Positions 16,427 to 56,864 of a DNA stretch of 64,000 bases are shown here, piece after piece. The stretch's first letter is position 1; the number at the start of each line of letters is the position of its first letter. A program made the translations under genes and the position numbers. The stretch is from Patescibacteria group bacterium. GTDB lineage: Bacteria > Patescibacteriota > Minisyncoccia > UBA6257 > Colwellbacteraceae. The DNA is taken from the NCBI GenBank assembly GCA_023380305.1, contig JAMCQZ010000008.1, positions 5,588-69,587 of the forward strand. Direction: 5' to 3'. The notes under the pieces are model-generated. The model had not been told where the DNA came from. It saw only the letters and a program-made list of their open reading frames with translations, and ran no database searches.

Positions 16427-16816
16427 CTAATCTAATCCTAACGCAGCATTGACTTTGGAGACAACGTCGTCCATTGTCCAGTCGGTCTTTAACAAATAAA
16501 AGGAGGGTTCGTCGTGGGTAACTCCATATATCACCTTATCGTCGGCGCTTAGATTGGTGAGAATAACAATCGGTATTTTTTTACCCCACTCGGTCAGCCG
16601 CAGTTTTTTCATCATCGTCATGCCGTCCATTTTGGGCATCAAAAGATCGAGGATGATCAGGTCCGGCTTTCCCTTTTCGGCCGCCGCGAACCCCTCTTCG
16701 CCATCCTTGGCCTCGATGATACTAAATCCAACGCCGGAGAATTTATCCGCCAGCGCCCGTCTCACGGCCGGTTCGTCCTCGACCACAAGAATAATCTTGC
16801 CGCAATGTTGATTCAT
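16427..16816 (-). CDS. Response regulator (receiver domain only)
   Basis: KIILVVEDE...DLIILDLLMPKMDG...ILTN CheY-like receiver. Confidence 0.8.
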   Translation of the reverse strand: MNQHCGKIILVVEDEPAVRRALADKFSGVGFSIIEAKDGEEGFAAAEKGKPDLIILDLLMPKMDGMTMMKKLRLTEWGKKIPIVILTNLSADDKVIYGVTHDEPSFYLLKTDWTMDDVVSKVNAALGLD

Positions 16817-18435
16817 TTGGTTGAAGTTTCTAATTTGCTTTCGGAAGCCGACTTTTGCATGTTCGCCTCCGCTCTTTTGAAAGGAAGAATAACGAAAAAA
16901 GTTGTTCCTTTGTTTTCGGCCGACTCAAACCAGATGCGTCCGCCCAGTTGTTCCACGAGAGATTTAATAAGGTAAAGGCCGAGTCCATTTCCGTCGGGAT
17001 CAACCTCCCGCGCATTATCGGCCCGGAAAAGCTTAGCGAAAATCTTGTCTTGCTGGCCGGAAGGAATGCCTATACCGTTATCGGCCACGGTAATCGACAA
17101 ATTACCGCTTTCCTTTTGGATTGACTCGGTGATACGCCCTCCCTCTTTAGAATATTTGACGGCGTTTGAAAGCAGATTCTGGATAATGATCCTGATGATT
17201 TTGGGATCGGCTTCTATTTTCGGCATGGATCCGTATTTTTTATCCACGACGATATGCCGCTCCCGCATCTGCGGTTCGAGCTCGCCAATAACGCTGTCAC
17301 TGATCGCCGCAACATCGACAGCCTCGGGTTCTATCGGGAAAGTGCCCAGATCGATCTTGGACACGTTTAAAAGAGCGTTGACGAGATCGATCATTCTTTT
17401 GTTCGTCCGATAGATTTCATCAAGATAGGTCTTTTCTTTCAGTGTGATTTTACCGACGTCCCCGCCCAAAAGCATCTCCGAATACCAGTTTATGATCGAG
17501 AGCGGCGTCCGGAGCTGGTGCGAAGCCAAAGACACGAATTCGGTTTTGGCTCGATCGATCTCTTTGGTTTTGGTAATATCGCGTTCGACGCCGACATAGA
17601 ACCTGACATTCCCGGATCCGTCGAGGATCGGAGAAATCCTGAGCTCGGCGGTATAGACAACACCGTCTTTCCGGCGATTTTGCAGTTCCCCAATGAACGG
17701 CATTTTTTTATTTTTGATGGTATCCCACATCTGTTTGTAAAACTCGTCCGGCATCTGTCCGCCCCACAAAGCAGGCGTTTTCCCCTCCATCTCTTCAAAC
17801 GAATAACCCGTCATTGCCTCGGCCGCGTGATTCGCGTAAATAATCTTAGCGTCCGGATCGGTGATCATAATATGGTCCGAGGCGCTATCAACCGCCAAGC
17901 GGAATTTTTGAAGATCGGCCGCAAGATTCTCCGAAATTCTCTTTTCCCGGTCAACATCTTCAAGAACGTTCAGAAGGGCCGTCTGCGTATCTTGAAGAAT
18001 TTTATTCTTTCCTTCGATTTCCGACAGTCTCATATCCAACTCCCTCGTCTGGGCCCTTAATTTTTCCTGAAGCTCGGCGTATGCGACGTTCAACTTCCCC
18101 GCCATAAGGTTAAATGCGTCTATTAAAACGCCGACGTCTCCAGCGGCGCCCTTTTCCAGTTTGATAAAAGGTTTGCCTACGGAGAATCTCTCTGCAGCGT
18201 CAATAAGTAGTCTTATCGGCACAATGATGCGAGCGATAAAAAGATAAGCGACGACAGCCGTGATCGCAAAAGCTAAAATGACTAACGGGAAATAAATTTC
18301 CAGATTCCTGACCGCAAAATAAAACAAGAAGTCAAAAAGCACATTCCCTAAAACGAGGGCGGCCAGGAAACGCGCCGCCAAAGGCAGCTTATAGCCCACC
18401 GTCGGCCGCGATTGCTGGTTATAATTCATGGACAT
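16813..18435 (-). CDS. Sensor histidine kinase (2 TM, PAS, HisKA, HATPase)
   Basis: Two N-terminal TM helices, PAS region, H-box LASHQLRTPLS, and N/G1/G2 boxes (NAVKYS, DNGIGIP, GNGLGL). Confidence 0.85.
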   Translation of the reverse strand: MSMNYNQQSRPTVGYKLPLAARFLAALVLGNVLFDFLFYFAVRNLEIYFPLVILAFAITAVVAYLFIARIIVPIRLLIDAAERFSVGKPFIKLEKGAAGDVGVLIDAFNLMAGKLNVAYAELQEKLRAQTRELDMRLSEIEGKNKILQDTQTALLNVLEDVDREKRISENLAADLQKFRLAVDSASDHIMITDPDAKIIYANHAAEAMTGYSFEEMEGKTPALWGGQMPDEFYKQMWDTIKNKKMPFIGELQNRRKDGVVYTAELRISPILDGSGNVRFYVGVERDITKTKEIDRAKTEFVSLASHQLRTPLSIINWYSEMLLGGDVGKITLKEKTYLDEIYRTNKRMIDLVNALLNVSKIDLGTFPIEPEAVDVAAISDSVIGELEPQMRERHIVVDKKYGSMPKIEADPKIIRIIIQNLLSNAVKYSKEGGRITESIQKESGNLSITVADNGIGIPSGQQDKIFAKLFRADNAREVDPDGNGLGLYLIKSLVEQLGGRIWFESAENKGTTFFVILPFKRAEANMQKSASESKLETSTK

Positions 18436-18438
18436 GCC

Positions 18439-19401
18439 TTACGCTTTCTCGCCGAAAGATTTTTTTAGTTTCTCCATCTCCTGTTTTAACGCGACCATAT
18501 TCATTTCACGGTCAACCATCAGCCTGTTCATTTTTTCGAGCTCTAACAAATGTCTTTTTTCTTCGGCTATTTTTTCTTTTTCTTCGGTGATGTCGTCGAA
18601 AATCGCGTAGACATGACAAGGGGTGTGGTCTACTTTTTTCTGTTCGGAAACGGCATTCGCCCTAATCCAAAAGAGCTCCGGTCTTCCTTTGGTTTTTACC
18701 CCCCTCACGGCCCCGGCCACGTTCTCGCCGGTTCTTAAGGTAATGACTGCCGGATAATCCTCCGGTGGACAATATGATCCGTCTTCATAGACCATCGACC
18801 ATAAAGAGGTCGTCGGTCTCAGGCCTATTACTTCTTTGGCGGAAATACCGAGGATGCGTTCAGCCGCCGGATTAATGGCAACGATTTTCCCAGTATGATC
18901 CATGTAGAATACGCCCGAATTCATGGTGTTTATAAGCAGCTTGTACCTTTCCTTGATGTCGCGAAGGCCCGTCTCGATCGCCCGCTCTCTCGTTACGTCG
19001 CGGCCGATGCTGATAACGCCGAAATTCCCCGATTTATGATCGTGAAAAACCGCGTTGCTCCAATCAACGACTAACCGACGCTTGTTCTTGCCGATGACCG
19101 CATTCTCGTGATGGATAAATATTTTGTTCTGTTTGATGCTTTTTTCGAAAAGAGGCCTAAGCCCGGCCTCGGACGGAGTGAATTCTTCAATCCAATCCCG
19201 ACCGATCAAATCCTTCGGGGCGATGCCCAAAAGCTTCGATAAATAAACGTTGCCGTACAAAACCCTAGCCGTATTGTCCAGGACAAGCACGACCACGTCC
19301 ATAATATCGAAAACCGCGAACCAATGGGCTTTGAGCTGATCGAAACTAATTTCCAGATGCCGGCCGTGATTTGGATGATTCTGATTATTTTGAGGAGTCA
19401 T
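18439..19401 (-). CDS. Stand-alone tandem PAS sensor protein with C-terminal coiled coil
   Basis: Two PAS folds, no output domain. C-terminus ELEKMNRLMVDREMNMVALKQEMEKLKK. Confidence 0.75.
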   Translation of the reverse strand: MTPQNNQNHPNHGRHLEISFDQLKAHWFAVFDIMDVVVLVLDNTARVLYGNVYLSKLLGIAPKDLIGRDWIEEFTPSEAGLRPLFEKSIKQNKIFIHHENAVIGKNKRRLVVDWSNAVFHDHKSGNFGVISIGRDVTRERAIETGLRDIKERYKLLINTMNSGVFYMDHTGKIVAINPAAERILGISAKEVIGLRPTTSLWSMVYEDGSYCPPEDYPAVITLRTGENVAGAVRGVKTKGRPELFWIRANAVSEQKKVDHTPCHVYAIFDDITEEKEKIAEEKRHLLELEKMNRLMVDREMNMVALKQEMEKLKKSFGEKA

Positions 19402-19898
19402 CGCGATAATTTCTTTTTAAGCAAGGCCAGTTCGTGCTTCAACTCCAGCATTTTGTTTTCCCGGTCCACCATCAGCCGGTTTATCCGTTCGAGCTCTTGT
19501 GTACGTGCGACAACGGCTTTTTCCGTTACTCGCTCGCGAGTAACGTCTCTTACCGTTCCCACCACGAATATCATCCCGTTTTTATCGATGTAACGGGCCT
19601 TTCTGGTTAGAATGATGTGCGTTTTTTTACTCTTGTCGGTGTAAGTTTCTTCGTTGGTATTCACCTGCCCGGTTTTTAAGACTTCACTGTCATTTTCCCA
19701 AAATACCGCCACTTCTCGTTCCAAATACAAATCTCGGTCGGTTTTGCCGATGATTTCGTCGACCGGATAACCGAAAAAATCCGCGTAAGCCCTATTCACG
19801 AAAACAAACGCATGGTTTTTATCCTTAACAAATACCGGATCGGGTATGACGTTCAATATCTCCCTCAAAAAACTTGCACCGTTTATCGCCTCGGCCAT
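19398..19898 (-). CDS. Stand-alone PAS sensor protein with C-terminal coiled coil (paralog of previous)
   Basis: Single PAS. C-terminal ELERINRLMVDRENKMLELKHELALLKKK, near-identical to the motif in the neighbour. 4-nt overlap (ATGA) suggests translational coupling. Confidence 0.7.
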   Translation of the reverse strand: MAEAINGASFLREILNVIPDPVFVKDKNHAFVFVNRAYADFFGYPVDEIIGKTDRDLYLEREVAVFWENDSEVLKTGQVNTNEETYTDKSKKTHIILTRKARYIDKNGMIFVVGTVRDVTRERVTEKAVVARTQELERINRLMVDRENKMLELKHELALLKKKLSR

Positions 19899-20012: not shown

Positions 20013-20390
20013 TTAGATCCCCTTCGGATTCAACAAGTCTTCCTTTATTTTGTCCACGACTTCATTAATGGGATGCTGAGTCTTAACGAAATAATCCTTC
20101 GCTCCTAAAGCCAGACCCTCCTTAATGTCTTCATCTCCGCCCAAATTTGAAAGAATGATTACCGGTATATTTTTTAGGCTTTCTTCCTCTTTCAGATCAC
20201 GCAAAACGTCCAATCCGGGCTTTTTCGGCAAAAGCAGATCCAGAAGGATCATGTCCGGAGTGAAAGCCTTGATAAGCGGCAAAGCCGTCTCGCCGTCAAC
20301 GGCGATTTTAACGTCGAATTTCTCTTTTTCCAGTTTTTCTTTCAGGACCTGGGCTAATGCTTCCTCGTCTTCCACAATCGCTATTTTCAT
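20013..20390 (-). CDS. Response regulator (receiver domain only)
   Basis: KIAIVEDE...DMILLDLLLPKKPG...ILSNL, CheY-like. Confidence 0.8.
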   Translation of the reverse strand: MKIAIVEDEEALAQVLKEKLEKEKFDVKIAVDGETALPLIKAFTPDMILLDLLLPKKPGLDVLRDLKEEESLKNIPVIILSNLGGDEDIKEGLALGAKDYFVKTQHPINEVVDKIKEDLLNPKGI

Positions 20391-20419: not shown

Positions 20420-22147
20420 TTATTGGTTGATCTCTCCGATATTTTCAATCAAATATTTGGAAAGCTTTTCGATATTCCCCTGGATTCGCTTCAGGCCGTA
20501 TTCCATCTCGCTCGCTTCTCGCTCGCTGATGTCCTTGTCACTATAGTTTTGTATCATTTTGGCGATATCTTTTTTGATAAGACCGAAGACCGCCACGATG
20601 TCTCTTTGGGCGATCAATATTCTCCGGCTGCGCATAATGCTTCGCTCCCTCATTGAAAACCAGCCGAGAAGAACGCCGACAATAAGCGTCGCGAGAAGCA
20701 ACCCGATCATGCCCGATTGAGTTATTTCGAATCCGCCGATCATCATGACCGGCCTTTCTTTGGCCGTGATCGCTTCCGATCGCGCTGGTAGACTTACCGC
20801 TCCGCGATTATCTTCAGCGACCGCCTCGATATAATAAACTCCCCGTTTCAAAGGATTGTTGAATTCTCCGGAAAAATTTCCGTTCTGATCCGGAGTCGCC
20901 TGGAGGGAAGCAATAACGTCGCCGGGCTTAGACCTTAAACTGACATTTACCACAAAGCTCGTAGACGCGGTGCCTTGGAATCTCAAGCCTCCTTCTCCAA
21001 CAAAGACCTGCCTGGTAACCGAGGTAATCGTCGGCGACGGCAACGGCAGAACCTCGAAATCAAGCGTGCTAATATTTTCGTTCCCGGCGTTATCGACGGC
21101 GGCTACCCTGACGATATGTTTTCCGGGGGTTAATTTAGAAAAAGTGAAGCTCGTATTTTTGGTCTCGACGGCCGCAGCGTTGTCGAGTTGGACTAAATAC
21201 GTCCTTATTCCGGAGAGAGAATCGGCGGATTTATAGTCGATGATCGGGCTTGGGTCCATTGTCGAAGCCGCCGGCGATATTTGAATATTAAACGCCAGCG
21301 GAGGTTCGCTATCTATCGCTAACCGATAATGAGCCGTCGGGCCCCAACCGATGTTATTTCTAAAACGCACGTGCAAATACGAGATGCCATCGGAAAGCGC
21401 GTTAAAAGTCTCATTGTCGAATAATCCTCCCGAAATAGCCGGACTGGCTGTCGGAAACTTGTCGATAATCGCGGCCACGGCGCCGACATCGCCGGGCAAA
21501 GTCCATTTAGCAAGAAAAGGCGCTATAGAGTTATACCAGGCGGCCGGATCCGGATAAAAAGGCACTTCCACCGTCGGTTTCACGGGCAAACCCGTGGCTG
21601 GGGCAGCTTCGCGGATGATCTGGGTGATGGGCGCGGCCGCTGCCGGCGGGACAACAACGCCGGATTTCGGAACAACGCTTAACTGCGCTCCGTTCATGGC
21701 CGATAAAACATTTGTCCCGCTGCCGTCGCTCGCCGTCACCGCGCCGTCGCTAAACACCAAATTTATCTGACCCGAGCCGACGGCCTTGAAGACCACCGAA
21801 ATTATTTGCAAGGACTGGCCGAATAAGCCGCTCGTCGATCCGCCGATAAACTTGACCTGGCCCTTCGCGTTATCGAAAACCGGATCCTGCAGCCAGAAAT
21901 TGATAACCGAACCGGTTTTATCGACACTTTGCGCCTGCAGAATATCTTTGGGGAAGTTCAGCGTTCCCTGAAAGGCATTCACTCCAGTGTTTTCGCTGTT
22001 TACGTGAATATCGACTTTAACCGTATCCCCTATCCCCAAGCTCATTTTGCTAGACACCAGATCCAAAGACGCGGCTTGCGCCTTTAAAGAACCGAAGAAG
22101 ATAAATCCTATAAATAGAAAAAAGAATAAATAAATTGTTTTTTTCAT
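20420..22147 (-). CDS. Cohesin-domain surface protein with signal peptide, Ig-like middle region and C-terminal TM anchor plus cytoplasmic coiled-coil tail
   Basis: Signal peptide MKKTIYLFFFLFIGFIFFGSLKAQAA. The first about 140 aa (IGDTVKVDIHVNSENTGVNAFQGTLNFPKDIL...INLVFSDGAVTASDG) fit the cohesin beta-sandwich consensus. TM GLLLATLIVGVLLGWF near the C-terminus. Confidence 0.65.
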   Translation of the reverse strand: MKKTIYLFFFLFIGFIFFGSLKAQAASLDLVSSKMSLGIGDTVKVDIHVNSENTGVNAFQGTLNFPKDILQAQSVDKTGSVINFWLQDPVFDNAKGQVKFIGGSTSGLFGQSLQIISVVFKAVGSGQINLVFSDGAVTASDGSGTNVLSAMNGAQLSVVPKSGVVVPPAAAAPITQIIREAAPATGLPVKPTVEVPFYPDPAAWYNSIAPFLAKWTLPGDVGAVAAIIDKFPTASPAISGGLFDNETFNALSDGISYLHVRFRNNIGWGPTAHYRLAIDSEPPLAFNIQISPAASTMDPSPIIDYKSADSLSGIRTYLVQLDNAAAVETKNTSFTFSKLTPGKHIVRVAAVDNAGNENISTLDFEVLPLPSPTITSVTRQVFVGEGGLRFQGTASTSFVVNVSLRSKPGDVIASLQATPDQNGNFSGEFNNPLKRGVYYIEAVAEDNRGAVSLPARSEAITAKERPVMMIGGFEITQSGMIGLLLATLIVGVLLGWFSMRERSIMRSRRILIAQRDIVAVFGLIKKDIAKMIQNYSDKDISEREASEMEYGLKRIQGNIEKLSKYLIENIGEINQ

Positions 22148-22161
22148 TTGATATTTTATTT

Positions 22162-25100
22162 TTATCCTTGCACTGTTCTTACAAAAATACTGAAGTCTTT
22201 GACGTCGACCACGCCGTCTCCATTGAAATCGATTCTTTTCCGCGCGGCTTGGTCAGTTGAGTTCCATAACGACAAAAAAATGCTTAAGTCTTTGACGTCG
22301 ACCACGCCGTCTCCGTTAAGATCGGTCTGGGTAGTGAAAAGTTGGGAAACGTTGAAGAACACCTGTGGCGAAAATTCGCTTTGGCGGCCGTCGGTTAATC
22401 GTTGTCGAGTCTGCACCGCATGAGATCCATAATTAAGATTGCCCGTATTAAACAAAATCTTGTAAAAACCAGCGACGTCTGCCGAAGTGCCGTAATCAAA
22501 CGCTTGGCGGTCAACAGTGAAGCTAATGGCGCTCCGTGGCGTCGCATAGCCTTGAATAGTGGCAAAATCGCCTTTCGTAACAGATTCTCGCAGGATACTC
22601 ACAGTCGGAGAAACCACTATATTCTCTTCAAAGAGCGCGCCGGCGACATCCAATTTATAAGACCGGGTCTGCACCGAATGGCCGTCTCTATCGGTTACGG
22701 ATAAAGCGTAAGTATAAATCCCTCTTTCCGTCAGGCCGTTGAAACGCACTTCGAAATCTCCGTACGAAGAAGTGACGGTTGTTTGAGTCAAGGTTTTTAC
22801 AACGCCAGTCGTGTTATCAAGATAAACCAAGGCCACTTTGGCTCCGGGAAAAGCTTTGCCTCTGAAAAGAATATCTGCCCGGAAATATCCCGGCACAGGA
22901 GTTGGCGCGGCCGGTGGCGGCGGAGCGGCGCTCCAGATTGCCAAGGATGTTGCCGAAACATTAAGTCCGGTGGAAGCCGTGTCGCTCAAGGAGAAATTGA
23001 CTGTTTCAGAAACGCTGTCGGTAATGCTCGCCGCGCCGACGCCGCTTGCGATCGTCACCGCTCCTCCGCCGGTGGCCGAACCAGAAACAACCAAGGTGAC
23101 CGAGCCGTTAAAAGTCGTCGCCAGATTGTTACTATTATCGACGGCTTTGATGGTTACGGAAATCGGAGATCCGGTTTGCGCCGTGGCCGGCGAGACGCTC
23201 ATTATAAATTTCGTGGCCGTCACCACGAGCGGGGCGACGACGACCGACCGCGAGGCGTCAGTGATGCCAGCGGAACCATCCGGAGCCGTGGCATTGTCCG
23301 AAACAGTTATGACATAAGTGCCGGCCGTATCGTCGTAGTACCAGAAATTAGCCGTGGAAGCGCCGTTCGGGATATCAATCGATTGAATAACATTTGATCC
23401 GGTCGCAGCGTCATAGAACTTCTTATTTGATGAAGTCGAAGTCGAATACAAATAGATTATGGTCACGCCCGTAGTAATAGTGTTATTGAAGCTATCGAGC
23501 CGACTTACCGTATAGCCAAGCCTGGCGCCCGCCGTCATGTTCCCTGGATTATTTAAAGCGAATTTGGCGACCGTAGCCGCGGTAAAGGTCACCGTTTGGG
23601 TTGAAGAAACGTCAAGCCCGGTGGGAGCGGTGTCGCTTAAGGAAAGATTGACTGTCTCGGCAACGCTGTCGGTAATATTTGCCGTTCCGGTTCCGTTTGT
23701 AATCGTTACCACTCCTCCGCCAGTGGCCGAGCCGGAAACAACTATGGTAACCGAATTATTGAAAGAAGTATCCACGGAATTGTCGGCTCTTTGAGCTTGG
23801 ATAGTGACGCTGACTGGACTGCTGACAGTATTATTCGTAGGCGGCAGAATGACGAGTTTGGTGGCGGTTGATGGCAGGCTAGTTACCATAAGCGAATCCG
23901 CAGCATCAGCGATGCCAGCGGCTCCATCCGGAGCTGCGACATTGTCCGAAGCGGTAATAGTGTAGGTTCCCGGAGTATCGTCCACGTACCAAAAATCAGC
24001 TGATGAATTGCCGGCTGTAATATTGATCGAAATGATGATGTTTCCTCCGGAGGCGGCGTCATAAAACTTTTTGTTGGCGGAAGACGAGGAAGAATATAAA
24101 TAAGCTGTGTTGACGCCCGAAGTCGCCAAGTTTCCATATTGGTCTTTTCTCGTAACCGTATAGCTAGCCCGCGAATTGGCGACCACGCTTCCCGGATGAT
24201 TAAGGAAGAAAGCGGAGACGGCTCCCGGAGCGAAGATAACGGACTTGGTCGAAGAAACATCGAGCCCAGTGGAGTTGGAGTCGGTTAGAGAAAGATTGAC
24301 TGTCTCGGCGACGGTGTCGGAAATATTCCGAGTACCCTCACCATTAACGATATTGACCACTCCTCCGCCGGTGGCTGAGCCGGAAACAACCAAGGTGACC
24401 GAATTGGAATAAGTCCCTGCCAAGGCGCCTGAAGAATCCTGGGCCTGGACAGTAACGGCGATCGGATTGTCGACTGTCCCGTTTGCCGGTTGGATAATGA
24501 CAAATTTGGTGGCCGCAACAATAACAGTTAGTGAATCCGTCCCCGGAGTGAGCACTCCGGAGGAAACAGTAATAGTCCAGGTCCCGGCTTTGTCGTCGAA
24601 ATACCAGAAGTTAGCCGAAGAATTGCCTGAAGTGATATCAATGGAAGTGATGATATTCCCTCCGGAAGCGGCATCATAGAACTTGTAATTGCCGGTAGAA
24701 TTGGAAGATAAGCTGACGGTGGTGGTTCCGGAAGTCACTAAGTTACCAAAAGAATCTTTTCTCGTCACCGTGTAGCTCGCTCTGGTACCAGCCGAAATTG
24801 TTCCCGGATGATTCAAAAAAAGAGCCGAAGCAGAAGAAGGATTGACGACCAGCGAATCTGTTCCCGGAGTAAGCGCCCCGGAAGAAGCGGTAATCGTCCA
24901 GGTTTCTGGGAAATCGTCGTAATACCAGAAGCTGGCTGACGAATTGCCGGCCGTGATATTGATCGAAGTGATGATGTTTCCGCCAGAAGCGGCATCATAA
25001 AAAGCTTTGTTCGTTCCGGTGGAGTTCGAGGAGAGACTGACTGTTGTTGTTCCGGAAGTCACTAAGTTGCCAAAAGAATCCTTGCGGGTGACGGTATATC

Positions 25101-26262
25101 CCGCGCGAGTGCCGGCGGTGATCGGACCGGGATGATTCAAAAAAAGAGCGGAAGCGGAAGAAGGAGCGAAAGTAACGCTTCTTGTCGAAGAGACATCCAA
25201 TCCGGTTGATTGGGAATCGGTAAGAGACAAGGTGATGATCTCGGCAACATTATCCGTGATGTTTTTGGTGCCGACACCATTTGTAATCGTGATCAATCCG
25301 CCGCCGGTCGCCGAACCCGTGGTGTTTAAGGTAACACCTTGATTGTAGGTTGTATCAACGCTGCCGTAGCTATCTTGAGCCTGGATAGTGATTGTAAGCG
25401 GGACGCCGGCTGTTCCTGGTCCCGGATCCAAGATGACGAATTTAGTGGCGGAAACAATCACAGTTAGCAAGTCTGTTCCCGGAGTGAGCGCTCCAGAAGA
25501 AGCGGTGATGGTCCAGGTGCCGGCTTTGTCATCCGTATACCAGAAATTGGCCGATGATGAACCATTATTAATATTGATTGAGGTGATGATATTGCCTCCG
25601 CTTCCCGCGTCATAAAAATTAAAATTGCCGGTGGAATTGCTCGATAGCGAAACGCCAATTGTTCCGCTGGTCACCAAATTGCCGAAAGAATCCTTGCGGG
25701 TGACGGTATAGGCCGCGCGAGTGCCGGCCGAGATTGTCCCCGGATGGTTTAAAAAAAGAGCCGAGGCGGAAGCGGGGTTAACAATCAAATTGTCAGTGCC
25801 GGAAGTAAATCCGGATTGAGAAGCGGTAATCGTCCAAGTCCCGGCGAGCTCGTCGTAGTACCAAAAATTAGCGGAAGACGATCCATCAGGAATAGTGACC
25901 GAAGTGATGATGTTGCCCCCGGAAGCGGCATCATAGAATTTCTTGTTAGCTCCAGTTGAAGAGCTCGACAGATTGACGACAGTCGAACCGATTGTCACCA
26001 AATTGCCGAAAGAATCCTTGCGGGTGACGGTATATCCCGCGCGAGTGCCGGCGGTGATCGGGCCGGGAGAATTAAGGGTAAAAACCGAAGCCACGTCAGT
26101 TACCATCACCGTCGGTGAAGAAGCAATATTAGTTAAAGTTCCGGAATCGGAAACTCTCGATTGGGTGGTAAAAACAGAATTGCCGACCGTACTCGTGGCC
26201 GTGGCGCCGCTTGCTCCGCCGCCAGCTCCGTAGATAACGGTAATGGTTTGCGGAGAAGCCAA
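22162..26262 (-). CDS. Giant repeat-rich surface protein ending in a type-I dockerin (C-terminal portion of a split gene)
   Basis: 1366 aa. Ten Ig-like repeats in A-A-B-A-A-B-A-B-A-B order, Pro-rich linker, beta-sandwich region, then DLNGDGVVDVKDLSIF...DFNGDGVVDVKDFSIF, two canonical dockerin Ca-binding segments. Starts with TTG immediately after an in-frame TAG. Confidence 0.75.
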   Translation of the reverse strand: MASPQTITVIYGAGGGASGATATSTVGNSVFTTQSRVSDSGTLTNIASSPTVMVTDVASVFTLNSPGPITAGTRAGYTVTRKDSFGNLVTIGSTVVNLSSSSTGANKKFYDAASGGNIITSVTIPDGSSSANFWYYDELAGTWTITASQSGFTSGTDNLIVNPASASALFLNHPGTISAGTRAAYTVTRKDSFGNLVTSGTIGVSLSSNSTGNFNFYDAGSGGNIITSININNGSSSANFWYTDDKAGTWTITASSGALTPGTDLLTVIVSATKFVILDPGPGTAGVPLTITIQAQDSYGSVDTTYNQGVTLNTTGSATGGGLITITNGVGTKNITDNVAEIITLSLTDSQSTGLDVSSTRSVTFAPSSASALFLNHPGPITAGTRAGYTVTRKDSFGNLVTSGTTTVSLSSNSTGTNKAFYDAASGGNIITSINITAGNSSASFWYYDDFPETWTITASSGALTPGTDSLVVNPSSASALFLNHPGTISAGTRASYTVTRKDSFGNLVTSGTTTVSLSSNSTGNYKFYDAASGGNIITSIDITSGNSSANFWYFDDKAGTWTITVSSGVLTPGTDSLTVIVAATKFVIIQPANGTVDNPIAVTVQAQDSSGALAGTYSNSVTLVVSGSATGGGVVNIVNGEGTRNISDTVAETVNLSLTDSNSTGLDVSSTKSVIFAPGAVSAFFLNHPGSVVANSRASYTVTRKDQYGNLATSGVNTAYLYSSSSSANKKFYDAASGGNIIISINITAGNSSADFWYVDDTPGTYTITASDNVAAPDGAAGIADAADSLMVTSLPSTATKLVILPPTNNTVSSPVSVTIQAQRADNSVDTSFNNSVTIVVSGSATGGGVVTITNGTGTANITDSVAETVNLSLSDTAPTGLDVSSTQTVTFTAATVAKFALNNPGNMTAGARLGYTVSRLDSFNNTITTGVTIIYLYSTSTSSNKKFYDAATGSNVIQSIDIPNGASTANFWYYDDTAGTYVITVSDNATAPDGSAGITDASRSVVVAPLVVTATKFIMSVSPATAQTGSPISVTIKAVDNSNNLATTFNGSVTLVVSGSATGGGAVTIASGVGAASITDSVSETVNFSLSDTASTGLNVSATSLAIWSAAPPPPAAPTPVPGYFRADILFRGKAFPGAKVALVYLDNTTGVVKTLTQTTVTSSYGDFEVRFNGLTERGIYTYALSVTDRDGHSVQTRSYKLDVAGALFEENIVVSPTVSILRESVTKGDFATIQGYATPRSAISFTVDRQAFDYGTSADVAGFYKILFNTGNLNYGSHAVQTRQRLTDGRQSEFSPQVFFNVSQLFTTQTDLNGDGVVDVKDLSIFLSLWNSTDQAARKRIDFNGDGVVDVKDFSIFVRTVQG
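22600..25900. repeat. Long tandem coding repeats (about 290-330 nt units, two alternating repeat types) within the giant surface protein gene
   Basis: Repeated peptides on the coding strand, and repeated artefactual peptides on the antisense strand (e.g. AVSLKEKLTVSETLSV at 22838 and 23537; MTNLVAATITVSESVPGVS at 24467 and 25388). Confidence 0.7.
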
Positions 26263-26286
26263 AGCAAGCGTGCGGACATTGATGGC

Positions 26287-27924
26287 CTATCCGATAAATG
26301 TCGGATTTCCCGGACCGAGCAAAACATCGTCTAAATAGACCGTCCGCGCGCTCACGTTAGCGTTGTATTTTAGGCCGTAGCTCAAGATACTCGAACGCGT
26401 TCCGCTTAAAGTAAGCTTCTGATACGTCCAGGTATTGGCCGAAAGAGCCGAGAGATTAAGGCTCGCTATCGGGCTCGCAAGCCCGGCCGAACTTGAATAT
26501 TGAAACTGGATGTCGCCGGCCGCAGCCGCTACAGTGGAATAAATCCAGAAACCAACCGTAGTGTATCCAGACCAGTTATTAGCTATGCTTAGATTTTCGT
26601 ACCAATAATCGCCGTTCACGGCATGCGAAGAAATGACGTTTTGGAGAGAGCCGATGCCTTCGTGCTTGGTCGCCGCGCTTGTCGAAAGAACCAACGTATC
26701 GGCGCTCGGCGCGGTCCAGTTCAAAATAGCGTCACAATTATCGATCTGTTTGCCGATGGCGTCGATATCGATATTGACCGCTCCGGTATTAACAACCCTT
26801 TCCAGGCCGTATGATTTTTGAATGATGTTTGAAGAGTTGGGCGCGCTCAAAACCACATATGTCCAGGTATTTGCGGCGAGAGCCGGAATATTGACCGTGT
26901 CGAGGGGCGAGCCGAAATCGGCTGAATTATCATCCTTCCAGACAAAATCCCCGGCATTCAAAGCAATGTTCGACCTGATCCAAAAACTAACTTTGCCTCC
27001 AGGGCCGATGACGAAATTGCCGTTATTGCTGTAGCACTGACCGGCGGTGCCGATTCCGGCTCCGGCAGCGTAGGCGCAACGGATGGCGGCGCTACCCTCC
27101 ATATAATTTCCAGCTGTGTTTAAAAGCGACCGGGTGATGCTTCCGTCGCTTTTCCAAGCAGTCAAAGAATCGGCTGCGTCGAAAAGCGGAGAGATGGAAT
27201 CGGTTTTGACGGTCGCCGCTCCAATGTCGGTTGTATAACGCAAGCCGTAAGACAAAATCGAAGTCCTTGTCGCCGCTCCGAGCGTCACCGAAGTGTAATG
27301 CCAGGTGTTCGCCGCCAAAGCCGGAATGGCGATGGTGTCGAGCGGACTCGCGAGATTCGCCGAATCATCGTCTTGCCAGGAAAGATCTCCCGAGGCAGTG
27401 GCGACGCTCGATTTCAAAAAAAGGCCGACGCGGAGATTGATGGCGTTGGCATCGCCCCAATTAGAGGCTGCGCCGTAATTAAAATACCATTGTTCGTTAG
27501 CGACGGCTGTGGAGCTGATTGTATTTGCTAAAGATCCTGTTCCTTCCGACTTGTCGCCAGTGTCGATGGATAAAGCCATGTGGTTCGATGAAAACCAGTT
27601 AGTCGTCGTATCCAAATTATTTCTGACATCGGCAATGGTTCCGGTCGAACTCGCCGTGGTGTATCCGACAACGCCGTTTATTCCCTGGGGAGCGCTCCAA
27701 CCGGCCGGCGCGGTGATACCGATGCCGCCGGAATCCATCAGCTCGGCTGCGGTAAAAGTAAAAGTCAAAGTATTGCCGGTTGAATTGCGGATAGCCGCCG
27801 TCGGCGTTACCGTGTTCGTTCCCGAACCGTCGGCCGCCAAAGCCGCCTTGATTCCGAGCGTAAACGCAAGCAATAATAAGGCCGCAAAATATAGCTTTAT
27901 TTTATGGAGATAGCTAAAAAACAT
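26287..27924 (-). CDS. Signal-peptide-bearing protein with three CBM-like (carbohydrate-binding-module-like) repeats; N-terminal portion of the split giant surface protein
   Basis: Signal peptide MFFSYLHKIKLYFAALLLLAFTLGIKAALA. Three about 130-aa repeats ending ...ANTWTY...SILSYGL(K/R)Y...YLDDV, a CBM4/9-like signature. Terminated by TAG at 26287-26289, which is in frame with the downstream ORF. Confidence 0.65.
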   Translation of the reverse strand: MFFSYLHKIKLYFAALLLLAFTLGIKAALAADGSGTNTVTPTAAIRNSTGNTLTFTFTAAELMDSGGIGITAPAGWSAPQGINGVVGYTTASSTGTIADVRNNLDTTTNWFSSNHMALSIDTGDKSEGTGSLANTISSTAVANEQWYFNYGAASNWGDANAINLRVGLFLKSSVATASGDLSWQDDDSANLASPLDTIAIPALAANTWHYTSVTLGAATRTSILSYGLRYTTDIGAATVKTDSISPLFDAADSLTAWKSDGSITRSLLNTAGNYMEGSAAIRCAYAAGAGIGTAGQCYSNNGNFVIGPGGKVSFWIRSNIALNAGDFVWKDDNSADFGSPLDTVNIPALAANTWTYVVLSAPNSSNIIQKSYGLERVVNTGAVNIDIDAIGKQIDNCDAILNWTAPSADTLVLSTSAATKHEGIGSLQNVISSHAVNGDYWYENLSIANNWSGYTTVGFWIYSTVAAAAGDIQFQYSSSAGLASPIASLNLSALSANTWTYQKLTLSGTRSSILSYGLKYNANVSARTVYLDDVLLGPGNPTFIG

Positions 27925-53760: not shown

Positions 53761-56256
53761 CTATTTTTCGATGGCCATAATCTCTTTCTGAGCTTCCCAT
53801 TTCTTCATGAACGCTTGTCCAATCTTCGTTTTTATTTTTTCGCGCTCCTTAGAGTTTCTTGCCACTGGCAAAAGTATTTCTTCCCAGCGATTCCCTATAT
53901 TGGGAAGCGTTGTATCTATCATAATTTTGTTATAGAGCTGTTGTTTCGTTAGATGATGGGAGAATAAGTAAAGCAGATAAAAAGCGTCTATGCCATATTT
54001 ATTTTCTTCATTTATAACTCGGAATATGAGACTATGATGGTTCAAAAGTATGCCGGTGTCGGTAGGCGAAAGTAATGCCACATCACCGATCCTATAACTT
54101 CCTTCTTTGACGAATACAATATCTTTTACTTTCAGTTCAACGCCATTGCCTTTTACGCTCTCATACACTTCGCGCGGCACCATAGCAGTCGGATTCTTGT
54201 ATACCTCCCAATCAATAATATCCGCCGCACGGACATAAGGAATTTCACCCCTCCCTTTGAATTCGCTTGGTGGTGCACCATGTCCACGGAATTTCTTTAT
54301 GATTCCTTGATCGATTAAGTCTTTTACCGATACAAATTCCAGCCCCAATTTCTTTGCTTCTTCATACAGTCCCTCAATTTTTTTCTGCCAATAATATCTG
54401 GGAACATAAATGTTGTCTTTTACGTTTGAAATATCTACAGAAAACACACACTTATTCTTAAGGCTAGAAACGTCGTCTAATTCATTCCGAATTACTATAG
54501 TGTCGTCCCATATCTCATCGGTAAATCTACAACTTTTCTCATCATATCGGTACATCTTCTCTCCTCTGTGATCATGGCCCATTTCCTCTGCCACAGCCAT
54601 GATTATCGGGTTTTGTTGTGGTTTCCCTTTTTCAAGGATTAGTAAAACAGTCTTGGCATTACAATGGGGACGAAAGGTATTATGAGGGAGGTCAATTACA
54701 GCTTTTATATTGTTATCTTTTTTAAGGTATTCAAGAATATATTTCGTGCTGGGAGCATGGAAATAAGTCTCGGGCAATACGATAGCAAGTTTGCCGCCGT
54801 CGTTGAGCATTTCCAAACACCGCTCAATAAAAAGCTCCTGTATGGCTGTATCTTTAGCTTGGTCTGTCTTAATATACACGCCATCTTTTTCTATCCATTT
54901 ATGGCCAAGGTCAAAATGCTGCGCATCTTCTTTAAAGATTTTTGTTTTACTGCCAAAGGGGGGGTTGGTGAGGATTACGTCGAATTTTTTGAATTTATCA
55001 TCCTCTACGAATAAATCTTTAGCTTTCCCTTCAAATTCTTCTGCTGTATGGAGAGAATTCTGCTGTGCGATACCGCTCTGCCCATCCCCCATGATCACCA
55101 TGTAAGCTTTGGCGATTTTTACCAGATCGATTTCTTTATCTAAGCCGAAGAAGTTTTTTTGAGCGATCTCTTTTTTAAGCGCATCAAGATTCGGAGCACC
55201 TTTATATTTCTTACTTTTGTCCATCACAAGCCAGATATGCTCTAGGGCATGGATAAGAAAACCGCCGCTACCACAAGCCGGATCGAATATGGTCTGGCCT
55301 GGTTGTGGATCGATTATTTTTATAGCCGTTTTGACTACCTCCCGTGGCGTGAAGAATTCTCCTTTTTCTCCGACAAGTTTACTTTCGGCGAATACCTCAA
55401 AGGCGTCTCCTACCGTATCTTTATCAGTTTTAAGTAAACTATATTTCTCTAGCTCACCCACTACGCGAGTGATTGATTTATCATCAAGTTTTATCTCTTC
55501 TTCTTTATCGAAAATTCCATCTCCCACGAGTTCGCTCTTAACCTGATCAAAGAGCGTCTTGACACGCTTGCTTACTTCCCTCGGATTTTCATTGAAACCG
55601 ATGCGGAATTTCGGTAGGGCATCCTGCTCATACCTCTCATCCCATATTTTGCAGAAAATAAGACGTATCATCTCATTCCCAAGCTTCTCACGTCGACTGA
55701 TATTCGTGTTTGAATATAAGGTATTGAGCAATCGCCGAAAAGTGAGCTTAAGGTTGCTCGCCGGAGATAACTTATTCTTGGCAATACGCCCTATATCCTC
55801 AAAGGTCTCTCCATTCTTGGGAATTTGAAAGACAAAATTAGTCTTCACCTCTCCGCTTATCGGATCACGATATAGGTATTCTATATCCGATCCATTAGTC
55901 CACACGCCCCATAGAGCGGACGAGGCAGACATATAGCTTGCAAGCTGTTTGACGCCCTCCTTCTTCGTTGGTCGTTTCGTCTCAACTATGCCTAAAATGT
56001 CTCGGCTCTGCTCACGCTTTTCTTTGTTAGAAGTCTTGTATACAACAATATCAGCACGCTCTTTATTCTTGGCAGAGCTTATCTCCCCGCGTTGGATATA
56101 AACTTCAATATCCATCCGCGCATAATCGTAATCATAGTCATTGAAAAGTACCTCCTCATATTCTTGTCTGACTCTCTCTTCTGGTTTTCTTATGTCTACT
56201 AGCCTGCCAGTTGCTTTATCTTTGATGCAGTCGTCTTTAAGAGTTTCGATCCTCAT
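53761..56256 (-). CDS. Single-polypeptide restriction-modification-type enzyme: N-terminal PD-(D/E)xK (HsdR_N-like) nuclease domain + gamma-class N6-adenine DNA methyltransferase + C-terminal target-recognition region (Type IIG-like)
   Basis: N-terminus RVRQEYEEVLF...ERADIVVY...GIVETKRP (D...ExK). MTase motif I FDPACGSGGFL and motif IV LTNPPFG. About 300 aa C-terminal TRD-like region. No hsdS or hsdR partner nearby. Confidence 0.55.
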   Translation of the reverse strand: MRIETLKDDCIKDKATGRLVDIRKPEERVRQEYEEVLFNDYDYDYARMDIEVYIQRGEISSAKNKERADIVVYKTSNKEKREQSRDILGIVETKRPTKKEGVKQLASYMSASSALWGVWTNGSDIEYLYRDPISGEVKTNFVFQIPKNGETFEDIGRIAKNKLSPASNLKLTFRRLLNTLYSNTNISRREKLGNEMIRLIFCKIWDERYEQDALPKFRIGFNENPREVSKRVKTLFDQVKSELVGDGIFDKEEEIKLDDKSITRVVGELEKYSLLKTDKDTVGDAFEVFAESKLVGEKGEFFTPREVVKTAIKIIDPQPGQTIFDPACGSGGFLIHALEHIWLVMDKSKKYKGAPNLDALKKEIAQKNFFGLDKEIDLVKIAKAYMVIMGDGQSGIAQQNSLHTAEEFEGKAKDLFVEDDKFKKFDVILTNPPFGSKTKIFKEDAQHFDLGHKWIEKDGVYIKTDQAKDTAIQELFIERCLEMLNDGGKLAIVLPETYFHAPSTKYILEYLKKDNNIKAVIDLPHNTFRPHCNAKTVLLILEKGKPQQNPIIMAVAEEMGHDHRGEKMYRYDEKSCRFTDEIWDDTIVIRNELDDVSSLKNKCVFSVDISNVKDNIYVPRYYWQKKIEGLYEEAKKLGLEFVSVKDLIDQGIIKKFRGHGAPPSEFKGRGEIPYVRAADIIDWEVYKNPTAMVPREVYESVKGNGVELKVKDIVFVKEGSYRIGDVALLSPTDTGILLNHHSLIFRVINEENKYGIDAFYLLYLFSHHLTKQQLYNKIMIDTTLPNIGNRWEEILLPVARNSKEREKIKTKIGQAFMKKWEAQKEIMAIEK

Positions 56257-56340
56257 ACTACAATTATCGCACGTAAATCACTATTCCTCCTACTTAAGTT
56301 TTCAACACTTGAAATGAGGGGATACTCACCATTTTTTATT

Positions 56341-56358
56341 GCTCCGACACCTGGAATC
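56341..56358. repeat. Direct repeat of tRNA-Asn 3' end (17 of 18 nt identical to 56792..56809)
   Basis: gctccgacacctggaatc versus tRNA gctccgacacctggattc. att-like duplicate bounding the GIY-YIG #1 segment. Confidence 0.6.
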
Positions 56359-56408
56359 TCACTGCTCGCCAGCGCCACTTTCGTCTTGAAAATGCCTGGA
56401 ATCAAACA

Positions 56409-56660
56409 TTAATTATTCAGATAATTTCTTAATTGTTTGTTAATATATTTTCGGCCGGATCCTCCTTTTAAAAACTTTTCTCTACCTATGGCGTCGCTCT
56501 TATTAAGATACCCCTCAAAATATATCAATCTATATGTTTTTCCTCGAGTGGTCTTAGTGTCTCCAGATTTATGACCTTTAAGCCGTTTTTTGAGATCAGC
56601 CGTAAAACCAATATACAATCCCCTGGTTTCTGTATTTTCAAGGACGTAGACAAAATACAT
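56409..56660 (-). CDS. GIY-YIG nuclease family protein (minimal, 83 aa)
   Basis: YFVYVLENTETRGLYIGFTADLKKRLKGHKSG...REKFLKG, a GIY...YIG module with conserved Arg and Glu. Confidence 0.7.
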   Translation of the reverse strand: MYFVYVLENTETRGLYIGFTADLKKRLKGHKSGDTKTTRGKTYRLIYFEGYLNKSDAIGREKFLKGGSGRKYINKQLRNYLNN

Positions 56661-56789
56661 AATTCAAGTGTCGCGCAAAATAAATTGCTTCGCAACTTAT
56701 CGCCCGACCACGAAATGTGGCTTAGTTACTACGATTGCCTGCGCCACGAGATATTAAAATACCCCCTGGGGGTATTTTAATATTTTTCG

Positions 56790-56864
56790 TGGCTCCGACA
56801 CCTGGATTCGAACCAGGAACCCGCTCCTTAACAGGGAGACGCTCTACCGTTGAGCTATGTCGGA
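56790..56864 (-). tRNA. tRNA-Asn (anticodon GTT), 75 nt including encoded CCA
   Basis: Minus strand TCCGACATAGCTCAACGGTAGAGCGTCTCCCTGTTAAGGAGCGGGTTCCTGGTTCGAATCCAGGTGTCGGAGCCA. 7-bp acceptor stem, D arm GCTC/GAGC, anticodon loop CTGTTAA, T arm CCTGG-TTCGAAT-CCAGG. Confidence 0.85.

Follow-up and report, generated by a model that had tools for sequence, protein, structure and literature searches.

In the anchoring scaffoldins OlpA, OlpC and SdbA of C. thermocellum, and in ScaE of R. flavefaciens with the X-dockerin of CttA, a cohesin on the cell envelope captures a C-terminal dockerin. Non-cellulosomal modules include the toxin-complex cohesins and FIVAR-dockerins of the C. perfringens GH84 and GH33 enzymes, as well as cohesin 2xdh of Archaeoglobus fulgidus; the C. 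perfringens modules belong to secreted glycoside hydrolases and join these enzymes into complexes. Fibrillar adhesins such as Bap and SiiE, and likewise the giant dockerin ORFs of Omnitrophota, carry long Ig-like arrays and putative distal binding modules; for ultra-small bacteria, an adhesin role has been put forward for the dockerin domains of giant ORFs (PMC10066038). In the CPR, the envelope protein SEML1_0315 of Southlakia epibionticum (Saccharibacteria) harbors Ig-like and dockerin domains and is reported to be essential (PMC10633639). Its gene lies on the same strand as, and just downstream of, genes for a CheY-like response regulator and a PAS histidine kinase, SEML1_0317 and SEML1_0318 (PMC10633639, supplement table).

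In the window (the whole 64-kb stretch of DNA analyzed here), the gene for a cohesin "socket" membrane protein neighbors the gene for a giant secreted repeat protein with a dockerin "plug" (Table 1). The pair is probably a conserved surface-display cassette of CPR/Patescibacteria, that is, a non-cellulosomal, transmembrane (TM)-anchored cohesin-dockerin tether linked to two-component genes. As in the anchoring scaffoldins, an envelope cohesin would capture a C-terminal dockerin. Unlike in these proteins, the anchor is held by a TM helix near its C-terminus, followed by a conserved cytoplasmic tail, rather than by an SLH domain or a sortase signal, one cohesin is matched with one client, enzymes and a scaffoldin hierarchy are lacking, two-component genes are linked, and the host, a CPR bacterium, shows no sign of fiber degradation. 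We found no paper in the literature that describes the cassette.

Table 1. Features of the cassette and its neighborhood (positions in the window)
Feature	Position	Strand	Basis or remark
Two PAS proteins, membrane PAS-HisKA-HATPase histidine kinase and second receiver-only regulator	16427..19898	-	Pfam labels from the syntenic genes of locus L001
Receiver-only (CheY-like) response regulator, 125 aa	20013..20390	-	Pfam Response_reg over residues 3-107
Anchor gene, 575-aa type I membrane protein	20420..22147	-	ORF reading
Anchor: conserved cytoplasmic helical tail, residues 501-575	20423..20647	-	Family alignment and predicted helices
Anchor: single TM helix, residues 477-500	20648..20719	-	Hydrophobic segment read from the sequence, followed by RERSIMRSRR
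Anchor: stalk of three beta-sandwich domains, residues ~190-470	20738..21580	-	AF2 full-length model, pLDDT 87
Anchor: cohesin module, residues ~26-160	21668..22072	-	Follows the signal peptide
Anchor: signal peptide, residues 1-25	22073..22147		Signal-peptide-like MKKTIYLFFFLFIGFIFFGSLKAQA/A
Giant surface-protein gene, ~1920 codons including one in-frame TAG	22162..27924	-	Two same-frame ORFs split by the single TAG
Distal, dockerin-bearing ORF of the giant gene, 1366/1374 codons	22162..26286	-	Same frame as 26287..27924
Dockerin module, extreme C-terminus of the giant protein	22165..22332	-	Pfam Dockerin_1 above the gathering score
Dockerin Ca loop 2, DFNGDGVVDVKD	22195-22230	-	Followed by FSIFVRTV
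Dockerin Ca loop 1, DLNGDGVVDVKD	22288-22323	-	Followed by LSIFLSLW
C-terminal core before the dockerin, two Ig-like domains, X-module-like	22363..22935	-	Conserved in nearly all loci
Array of two alternating ~100-aa repeat types, probably Ig-like	22963..26262	-	Self and ortholog alignments
545-aa ORF, N-terminal part of the giant gene	26287..27924	-	Same frame as 22162..26286
In-frame TAG, codon 546 of the giant gene	26287..26289	-	CAG (Gln) in the L001 ortholog
Three tandem ~145-aa modules, possibly jelly-roll or CBM-like (putative fold)	26302..27639	-	Internal repeats by BLAST and HMM comparison
Sec-type signal peptide of the giant protein, MFFSYLHKIKLYFAALLLLAFTLGIKAALA/ADGSGTN	27835..27924	-	Read from the sequence; start ATG at 27924

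The 575-aa protein had been described in the original prediction as a membrane protein with a signal peptide, an N-terminal cohesin beta-sandwich, a C-terminal TM anchor and a cytoplasmic coiled-coil tail. The ORF, the signal-peptide-like N-terminus and the hydrophobic segment are indeed present, and the long helices in the AF2 model (residues 477-534, including the TM segment, and 542-574) agree with a helical tail. The predicted topology is N-terminus out and C-terminus in, with a positive cluster after the TM segment. The protein belongs to a family of 1254 clusters at 50% identity (E<=1e-30), mostly of 560-600 aa; among the named matches listed, nearly all are from Patescibacteria. The Pfam Cohesin model (PF00963) matched residues 39-146 of the window protein with 20.2 bits (E=7.4e-4), short of its gathering score (24.1), reached E<=0.01 in 24 of 37 close family members (best 1.2e-9) and is precomputed for many homologs. 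The cohesin jelly-roll fold is borne out by the predicted structure, which matched the solved cohesins 4dh2 of OlpC (TM 0.76), 3ul4, 2zf9 and 5lxv, and fitted the three cohesin types (I, II and III) to a similar degree. The fold is thus like that of the cellulosome scaffoldins.

Residues conserved in the family (N57, A58, Q60, F84, W85, F100, D134, A136, T138 and D141-N146) map to strands 3, 5, 6 and 8 and to the 8-9 loop in the alignment and predicted structure. In solved complexes, strands 8-3-6-5 form the cohesin face that binds the dockerin. The cohesin is joined to the stalk by a linker that is of low confidence in the AF2 model (residues 161-190). The stalk is matched by FN3- and Ig-like structures and, at residues 325-366, by Pfam Big_13 (35.4 bits). 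The cytoplasmic tail has the motifs 'IAQRDV' and 'KYIxENIxEI' and gave no match in Pfam or PDB. The likeness of the TM segment to the TM-juxtamembrane region of EGFR is one of composition only.

The dockerin of the giant protein scored 30.1 bits with Pfam Dockerin_1 (PF00404; gathering score 22.9) and 30.4 with NCBIfam dockerin_GC (cut-off 29), and Dockerin_1 matched 25 of 28 orthologs. It consists of a duplicated segment of ~22 residues, each with a 12-residue Ca loop of the form D-x-[ND]-x-D-G-x-x-[DN]-x-x-D and a helix, which is the pattern that defines a dockerin. The Asp residues at loop positions 1 and 12 of both segments are invariant in 74 of 74 sequences. The family profile matched the solved dockerins 2y3n_B (6.8e-6), 4fl4_A and 2mte_A. 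Two canonical Ca loops had led to the label of a textbook type-I dockerin; the dockerin stands, but type I cannot be assigned, because, among solved structures, the type II dockerin 2y3n_B matches best, with type I dockerins next, and because a conserved Ig-like module precedes the dockerin in the manner of an X-Doc dyad.

The module before the dockerin lies in the C-terminal core (q~1665-1919), the sole region of the passenger conserved in nearly all loci. The profile of this C-terminal family matched the Ig-like domains of Bap (7dm0_A, E=2.7e-10) and, over positions 146-255, the X-Doc dyads 4wi0_B and 4u3s_B, resembling the arrangement of an Ig-like module before the dockerin in cellulosomal proteins. 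Big_6 was matched in this core in 11 of 28 orthologs. Upstream, the alternating repeats of the array ('LNHPG..AGTRA.YTVTRKDSFGN' and 'TKFVI...VT.QAQD...SGSATGGG') are more numerous in the window than in the L001 ortholog, and their copy number differs between loci; Pfam Ig-like models matched them only weakly. The N-terminal ~145-aa modules gave no PDB match with a profile, and the 545-aa part that bears them gave no Pfam match. Sub-threshold similarity of the modules to CBM_11 (6 of 20 copies, best E 0.0015) and CBM_4_9 (0.022) was detected. The giant protein had been called a CBM protein in the original prediction, with Big_2, Big_3 and CBM_4_9 named for an HMM check; none of these models, nor any other CBM family, was matched significantly, so the CBM label is not established.

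The absence of glycoside hydrolases was correctly anticipated: none was found among the neighboring genes examined, and no catalytic domain (glycoside hydrolase or other CAZyme) occurs in the passengers of the window protein and 27 orthologs. A motif search of the 64-kb window found no further dockerin-like motif. A single cohesin, passengers free of CAZyme domains and one dockerin in 64 kb agree with the view that the locus is not a cellulosome. Compared with the C. perfringens modules, the cassette has an integral membrane anchor and a non-catalytic repeat fiber encoded as a fixed gene pair. The window proteins show weak similarity to the Ig domains of Bap and SiiE. In contrast with these adhesins, the attachment would be non-covalent, through a separate cohesin membrane protein, and would not rely on a sortase signal, a T1SS retention module or a TM segment in the fiber itself.

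We compared 81 related loci, each from a different species of Patescibacteria. In 79 of them, the anchor gene is immediately preceded by a same-strand ORF with a dockerin at its end, so the adjacency is not due to chance; in the window, the gap from the stop codon of the giant gene to the anchor start is 14 nt. The partners range from 340 to >3300 aa and are homologous to the giant protein of the window over the last ~250 aa, the remainder being variable. That a dockerin is always found beside the cohesin while the rest of the protein varies would be difficult to account for if the two modules did not interact directly.

These patterns suggest the following model. The upstream gene would encode a Sec-exported, repeat-rich, fibrous protein whose passenger differs strongly between species but whose end would always be two Ig-like domains and a dockerin. 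The downstream gene would encode a type I membrane protein in which a single cohesin tips a three-domain stalk, possibly long enough to span the cell envelope, above the TM helix and the cytoplasmic tail. After export, the dockerin would bind the cohesin in a Ca2+-dependent manner, and this contact would hold the fiber non-covalently at the cell membrane. The tethered fiber, which is no enzyme scaffold, probably serves in adhesion to a polymer or to a host cell.

Two other readings of the pairing were weighed. The anchor could be a general docking post that, like an anchoring scaffoldin, serves several dockerin proteins encoded elsewhere, its neighbor being one client. Dockerin-bearing proteins of other architectures do occur in metagenomes, one locus (L045) has an anchor gene with no dockerin gene inside 10 kb, and two (L015, L066) have a second ORF with a dockerin-like motif. 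The one-to-one adjacency in nearly all species, the single cohesin, the lone dockerin of the window and the high conservation of both the dockerin helices and the cohesin face throughout the family make this quite unlikely. Alternatively, the two proteins could act in the same envelope structure with no contact, the dockerin being an EF-hand-like structural Ca2+ cap and the cohesin fold an Ig-like adhesive tip. Most non-cellulosomal cohesin-like and dockerin-like modules are reportedly of unknown function, which counts for this reading, and EF-hand models do match the dockerin segment weakly. Since the dockerin models outscored them and passed curated cut-offs, and since the dockerin stays beside the cohesin despite the variable remainder, we regard it as very improbable. 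A direct tether is therefore preferred; cohesin S143 also covaries weakly with position 6 of dockerin loop 1, although this signal is confounded by phylogeny.

The gene pair was found in ~80 species representatives of many candidate phyla or orders, all uncultivated, ultra-small and of the CPR/Parcubacteria type. It is thus one of the more widely distributed pairs of envelope genes in these bacteria and is probably their usual means of tethering a variable surface fiber. Parcubacteria-type CPR are abundant and almost wholly uncultivated, and their presumed lifestyle is one of attachment to other cells. A conserved membrane cohesin socket that displays a fast-diversifying, dockerin-tipped fiber, wired to a two-component system, is a hypothesis testable with recombinant proteins. 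If true, it would add a TM-anchored, one-to-one, non-enzymatic use to the known roles of cohesins and dockerins and would offer a naturally orthogonal cohesin-dockerin pair for engineering.

The giant gene had been taken to start at 26262; its frame actually continues upstream through a TAG (26287-26289) to the ATG at 27924. The syntenic L001 ortholog is a single ORF of 1611 aa, which aligns to both parts and over the junction. Without read-through, the product would be only a 545-aa secreted N-terminal fragment, and the dockerin-bearing part, for which TTG is the only start, would lack a signal peptide and may not be exported as encoded here. Elsewhere, a hydrophobic N-terminal segment and a dockerin are found in one ORF in ~43 of 50 complete orthologous genes. 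The reproducible TAG means that the pair may be non-functional in the window. Apart from the CBM label and the gene start, most of what the original prediction observed was confirmed; its interpretation as a cognate, side-by-side, non-cellulosomal tether is partly supported, by the cohesin fold, the dockerin and the synteny in ~80 species, and is weakened by the local dockerin ORF that lacks a signal peptide.

It is possible, though doubtful, that the nonsense codon has left the cassette here as a functionless pseudogene remnant. TAG replaces the CAG of the ortholog, ends 19 of 56 ORFs in the window and so is an ordinary stop codon, and recurs at an identical junction in two other assemblies (L083, SRR10267473; L084, SRR10252151); the signal-less downstream ORF also fits decay. 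Yet the 1374 codons past the TAG remain open with no further lesion and are 64-68% identical to the ortholog, and the anchor and two-component genes are intact. Moreover, locus L037 has an independent in-frame TAG only 30 aligned codons from that of the window, followed by 1800 open codons, which hints at something other than decay. The local copy may have become a pseudogene recently or may be a variant that is switched off; in-frame TAGs whose positions almost coincide in two distant lineages might instead mark regulated isoforms, one short and secreted, the other long and anchored.

The cassette is linked with two-component signal transduction genes. In the window, 29 nt separate the anchor gene from the start of the receiver-only regulator gene downstream. 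In 47 of 81 loci, the gene that immediately follows the anchor gene is a two-component gene, usually for a receiver-only regulator and in a few for a histidine kinase; 62 of the 81 have a two-component gene right next to the cassette on one side or the other, and only three informative loci lack such genes. By description and gene table, the gene order at SEML1_0315 is that found upstream of the dockerin gene at many cassette loci, but the next gene there, SEML1_0314, encodes an alpha/beta hydrolase on the opposite strand, and no adjacent cohesin anchor is evident. Given the receiver-only regulator and PAS histidine kinase at its flanks, the tether may be coupled to a phosphorelay. In the boldest form of this idea, the cassette is not a passive tether but a transmembrane contact sensor or actuator, an integrin-like, CPR-specific adhesion-signaling unit. 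Load or occupancy of the cohesin-dockerin contact, e.g. by a fiber on a host, would be passed through the single TM helix to the cytoplasmic tail and on to the adjacent receiver-only regulator and PAS histidine kinase, or the signal would run in reverse as inside-out control of the tether. We consider this unlikely. The conserved link with two-component genes had escaped the original prediction.

The three ORFs that occupy 20420..27924, all on the minus strand, encode a TM-anchored protein (the anchor protein) and, directly upstream of it, a giant repeat protein ending in a dockerin. In the anchor protein, the Pfam Cohesin model aligned to residues 39-146 with a sub-threshold score (20.2 bits versus 24.1), and Big_13 gave a significant Pfam match. 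The anchor family is large and uniform: its close homologs, which number over 300, are about 570 aa long, and an exhaustive search collected 1254 clusters at 50% identity (E<=1e-30); the few homologs with source names were nearly all from Patescibacteria. Pfam Cohesin matched 24 of 37 sampled family members (best E-value, 1.2e-9), and some database records name members of the family "cohesin domain-containing protein". A Foldseek search with the full-length AF2 model (pLDDT 87) was swamped by tandem Ig/FN3 matches, and the cohesin fold comparison required a domain-only model. Judged by the predicted fold and the family-level HMM matches, the cohesin assignment originally made for residues 25-170 stands.

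Features of the gene pair and its surroundings, with window positions and positions within the encoded proteins
Feature	Window position	Strand	Position in protein	Remarks
Two PAS proteins, membrane PAS histidine kinase, second receiver-only regulator	region from 16427; kinase at 16813..18435			after the first receiver-only regulator
Receiver-only response regulator	20013..20390		Pfam REC, residues 3-107	125 aa; 29 nt past anchor gene
Anchor ORF	20420..22147	minus		575 aa
Anchor, signal helix			N-terminus	AF2 model
Anchor, beta domain			residues 26-159	AF2 model
Anchor, linker			after beta domain	AF2 model, low confidence
Anchor, three more beta-sandwich domains			to about residue 470	AF2 model
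Anchor, long helix			residues 477-534	AF2 model; first 24 residues are a hydrophobic TM segment
Anchor, second helix			residues 542-574	AF2 model
DGSGTN, anchor	21710-21727		residues 141-146
Giant gene, distal ORF	22162..26262	minus		1366 aa; TTG start
Giant gene, proximal ORF	26287..27924	minus		545 aa
In-frame TAG	26287-26289		position 546	giant gene
DGSGTN, giant protein	27814-27831		residues 32-37
Giant protein, Sec signal peptide			true N-terminus	MFFSYLHKIKLYFAALLLLAFTLGIKAALA/ADGSG
Giant protein, three modules			N-terminal part	about 145 aa each
Giant protein, long repeat array				two alternating types, about 100 aa each; only weak Ig-like signals
Giant protein, two conserved Ig-like domains			ahead of dockerin
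Low-GC region	53761-56864
tRNA-Asn	56790-56864

Invariant residues of the anchor family include N57, F84, W85, P89, A136, and D141-G142-x-G144, within the motif DGAVTASDGSGTNVLS, and T145 and N146 are nearly invariant. The invariant cohesin residues map to predicted strands 3, 5, 6, and 8 and to the 8-9 loop. Strands 3, 5, 6, and 8 form the dockerin-binding face in solved complexes, and the model would place the conserved residues on this face.

The giant protein ends in DLNGDGVVDVKD-LSIFLSLW and DFNGDGVVDVKD-FSIFVRTV, which passed the cut-offs of Pfam Dockerin_1 and NCBIfam dockerin_GC and not those of EF-hand models, confirming the predicted C-terminal dockerin. In both segments, Asp was invariant at positions 1 and 12 of the loop among 74 orthologs, and positions 3, 5, 6, and 9 conformed to the canonical N/D, D, G, and D/N. 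A profile built from the last 260 residues of 49 giant orthologs matched solved dockerins (2y3n_B at 6.8e-6, then 4fl4_A, 2mte_A, 1daq_A, and 2jnk_A), its positions 146-255 matched the X-module-dockerin dyads 4wi0_B and 4u3s_B, and the Ig-like domain preceding the dockerin matched Bap (7dm0_A, 2.7e-10). From these matches, to solved dockerins and dyads alike, the label "type I" cannot be assigned. As for the remainder of the protein, "Ig-repeat" is a plausible description of the array and the two conserved domains before the dockerin, while the CBM content proposed for the N-terminal modules was not supported: they had no PDB match and gave only weak CBM_11 and CBM_4_9 hints.

We scanned one genome per species for the anchor family and obtained 80 loci, or 81 with L001, a syntenic metagenome contig that carries a full-length giant ortholog. 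Save a few generic MAG labels, the 80 loci were labelled as unclassified bacteria or Patescibacteria lineages, among them Wolfe-, Uhr-, Staskawicz-, Colwell-, Jorgensen-, Yonath-, Nomura-, Azam-, Harrison-, Adler-, Nealson-, Yanofsky-, Buchanan-, and Magasanikbacteria as well as Paceibacterota and Minisyncoccia. At 79 of the 81 loci, the ORF that ends immediately ahead of the anchor gene, on its strand, had a dockerin at its C-terminus, and these ORFs were homologous to the giant protein of the window across the last ~250 residues. The two exceptions were L003, which has no upstream sequence, and L045 (CAYHUD010000002.1), which has a response regulator at this position. L045 was the only informative locus without a dockerin gene within 10 kb of the anchor gene; a histidine kinase and the response regulator lie directly upstream of its anchor gene. 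Signal peptide and dockerin were found in one ORF in about 43 of 50 complete genes. The passengers ranged from ~340 to more than 3300 aa with varying repeat numbers, some loci contributing Flg_new_2, YDG, Big_3_5, fn3, or beta-helix modules, and no catalytic domain was found in them at the examined loci. Read from sequence, a dedicated tether would be expected to show this pattern, in which socket and plug are conserved side by side while the passenger that bears the plug diversifies freely.

The side-by-side pairing originally noted is thus a conserved adjacency, and its reading as a tether is the best-supported model. The giant protein would be exported by Sec, and its C-terminal dockerin, which the Ig-like module in front of it may stabilize in the manner of X-Doc systems, would bind the single cohesin with Ca2+. 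In the TM-anchored partner, the stalk of three domains would keep the cohesin clear of the membrane, and the variable fibre would so be displayed at the cell surface, where it would act as an adhesin. We regard this model as a whole as probable. An anchor that serves several dockerin clients is unlikely beside the one-to-one gene pairing, and still less probable is a joint function of the two proteins with no cohesin-dockerin contact. Mutual information over 74 pairs placed cohesin S143 and dockerin loop 1 position 6 above all 100 shuffles, a signal to which we give little weight because it is confounded by clade structure. A cellulosome was ruled out, there being no enzymes and no multi-cohesin scaffoldin. 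A promoter and terminator scan gave results at chance level.

The hexapeptide DGSGTN occurs in both proteins: in the cohesin, where it is invariant or nearly so, it lies in the loop preceding the last strand, and in the giant protein it forms the predicted mature N-terminus, just past the signal-peptide cleavage site. The same holds in L001, L002, L008, L009, L017, L022, L027, and L035, and L076 has the variant DGSGSA. This recurrence could be a coincidence or a shared recognition motif.

A two-component gene was the immediate neighbour of the pair, either downstream on the anchor side or upstream on the dockerin side, at 62 of the 81 loci; 16 loci were uninformative (contig end, or start of the giant gene not placed), and only three informative loci lacked such a gene. 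At the 62 loci these genes, encoding receiver-only response regulators and PAS histidine kinases, are on the same strand as the pair, and the regulator often overlaps the stop codon of the anchor gene. These receiver-only regulators have no DNA-binding output domain, and the cytoplasmic tail of the anchor is conserved yet matches no known domain. The two observations make it plausible that the tether is coupled to a phosphorelay.

Compared with cellulosomal anchoring scaffoldins and the non-cellulosomal cases of C. perfringens and archaea, the system differs in its TM anchor with a conserved cytoplasmic tail, its strict gene pair of one cohesin and one client, its non-enzymatic and hypervariable passenger, its linkage to two-component genes, and its restriction to CPR bacteria. 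The cohesin and dockerin modules themselves are known families. A full-text literature search found no publication that describes paired cohesin and dockerin genes in CPR, Parcubacteria, or Minisyncoccota, and neither "dockerin" nor "cohesin" matched in the supplements of Wang et al. Dockerins have been mentioned in giant proteins of Omnitrophota (PMC10066038). In the cultivated Saccharibacterium Southlakia epibionticum, the dockerin-domain envelope protein SEML1_0315 is essential (PMC10633639), and its gene comes shortly after those for a CheY-like regulator and a PAS kinase, with all three on one strand (SEML1_0315-0318; PMC10633639 supplement). This gene order echoes the arrangement described above, and an adjacent cohesin gene is not evident there.

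The giant gene was originally taken to start at 26262, whereas its frame continues through a TAG up to 27924. The 545-aa and 1366-aa ORFs share a frame and are separated by this TAG and eight codons. L001 shares with the window the gene order TrpRS, DUF5667, TGT, QueA, giant, anchor, response regulator, PAS, PAS, histidine kinase, and its giant gene is one unbroken ORF of 1611 aa. Residues 1-546 of its product are 70% identical to the 545-aa ORF, the alignment extends over the junction to the 1366-aa ORF (64-68% identity), and a CAG (Gln) aligns with the TAG. Therefore, the true giant gene is 22162..27924, about 1920 codons, with an in-frame nonsense codon.

The 545-aa product ending at the TAG is recorded, with an identical junction, in two further assemblies that derive from separate sequencing runs (SRR10267473 and SRR10252151). 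An assembly error is therefore unlikely, and the stop is a property of the population. Codon reassignment was ruled out, as TAG serves as an ordinary stop here, closing 19 of the window's 56 ORFs. It is possible, if rather doubtful, that the TAG has inactivated the local copy of the cassette, a reading independent of the mechanism. Against simple decay, the 1374 codons past the TAG are intact, and L037, from the distant lineage Magasanikbacteria, has an independent in-frame TAG (L037:4589-4591) 30 aligned codons upstream, in place of the Tyr of the motif SYGL and followed by 1800 open codons. In both genes the TAG stands where the N-terminal triple repeat ends, with more than 1300 intact codons beyond. 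The chance of two random TAGs so near each other is a few percent, a rough estimate rather than a computed statistic.

Elsewhere in the window, a low-GC region (0.41-0.45 versus ~0.50 elsewhere) encodes an 831-aa fused type IIG-like restriction-modification protein with HSDR_N, N6_Mtase, and Eco57I domains, whose gene adjoins the only tRNA gene of the window; this region is possibly an integrated island. The minus strand holds 47 of the 56 large ORFs, and the cumulative GC skew falls steadily. Together with housekeeping genes for LigA, an EPSP-synthase-family (MurA-like) protein, NrdD, two P-type ATPases, lactate permease, TGT, and QueA, these features fit a chromosomal segment from one replichore of a small anaerobic genome.
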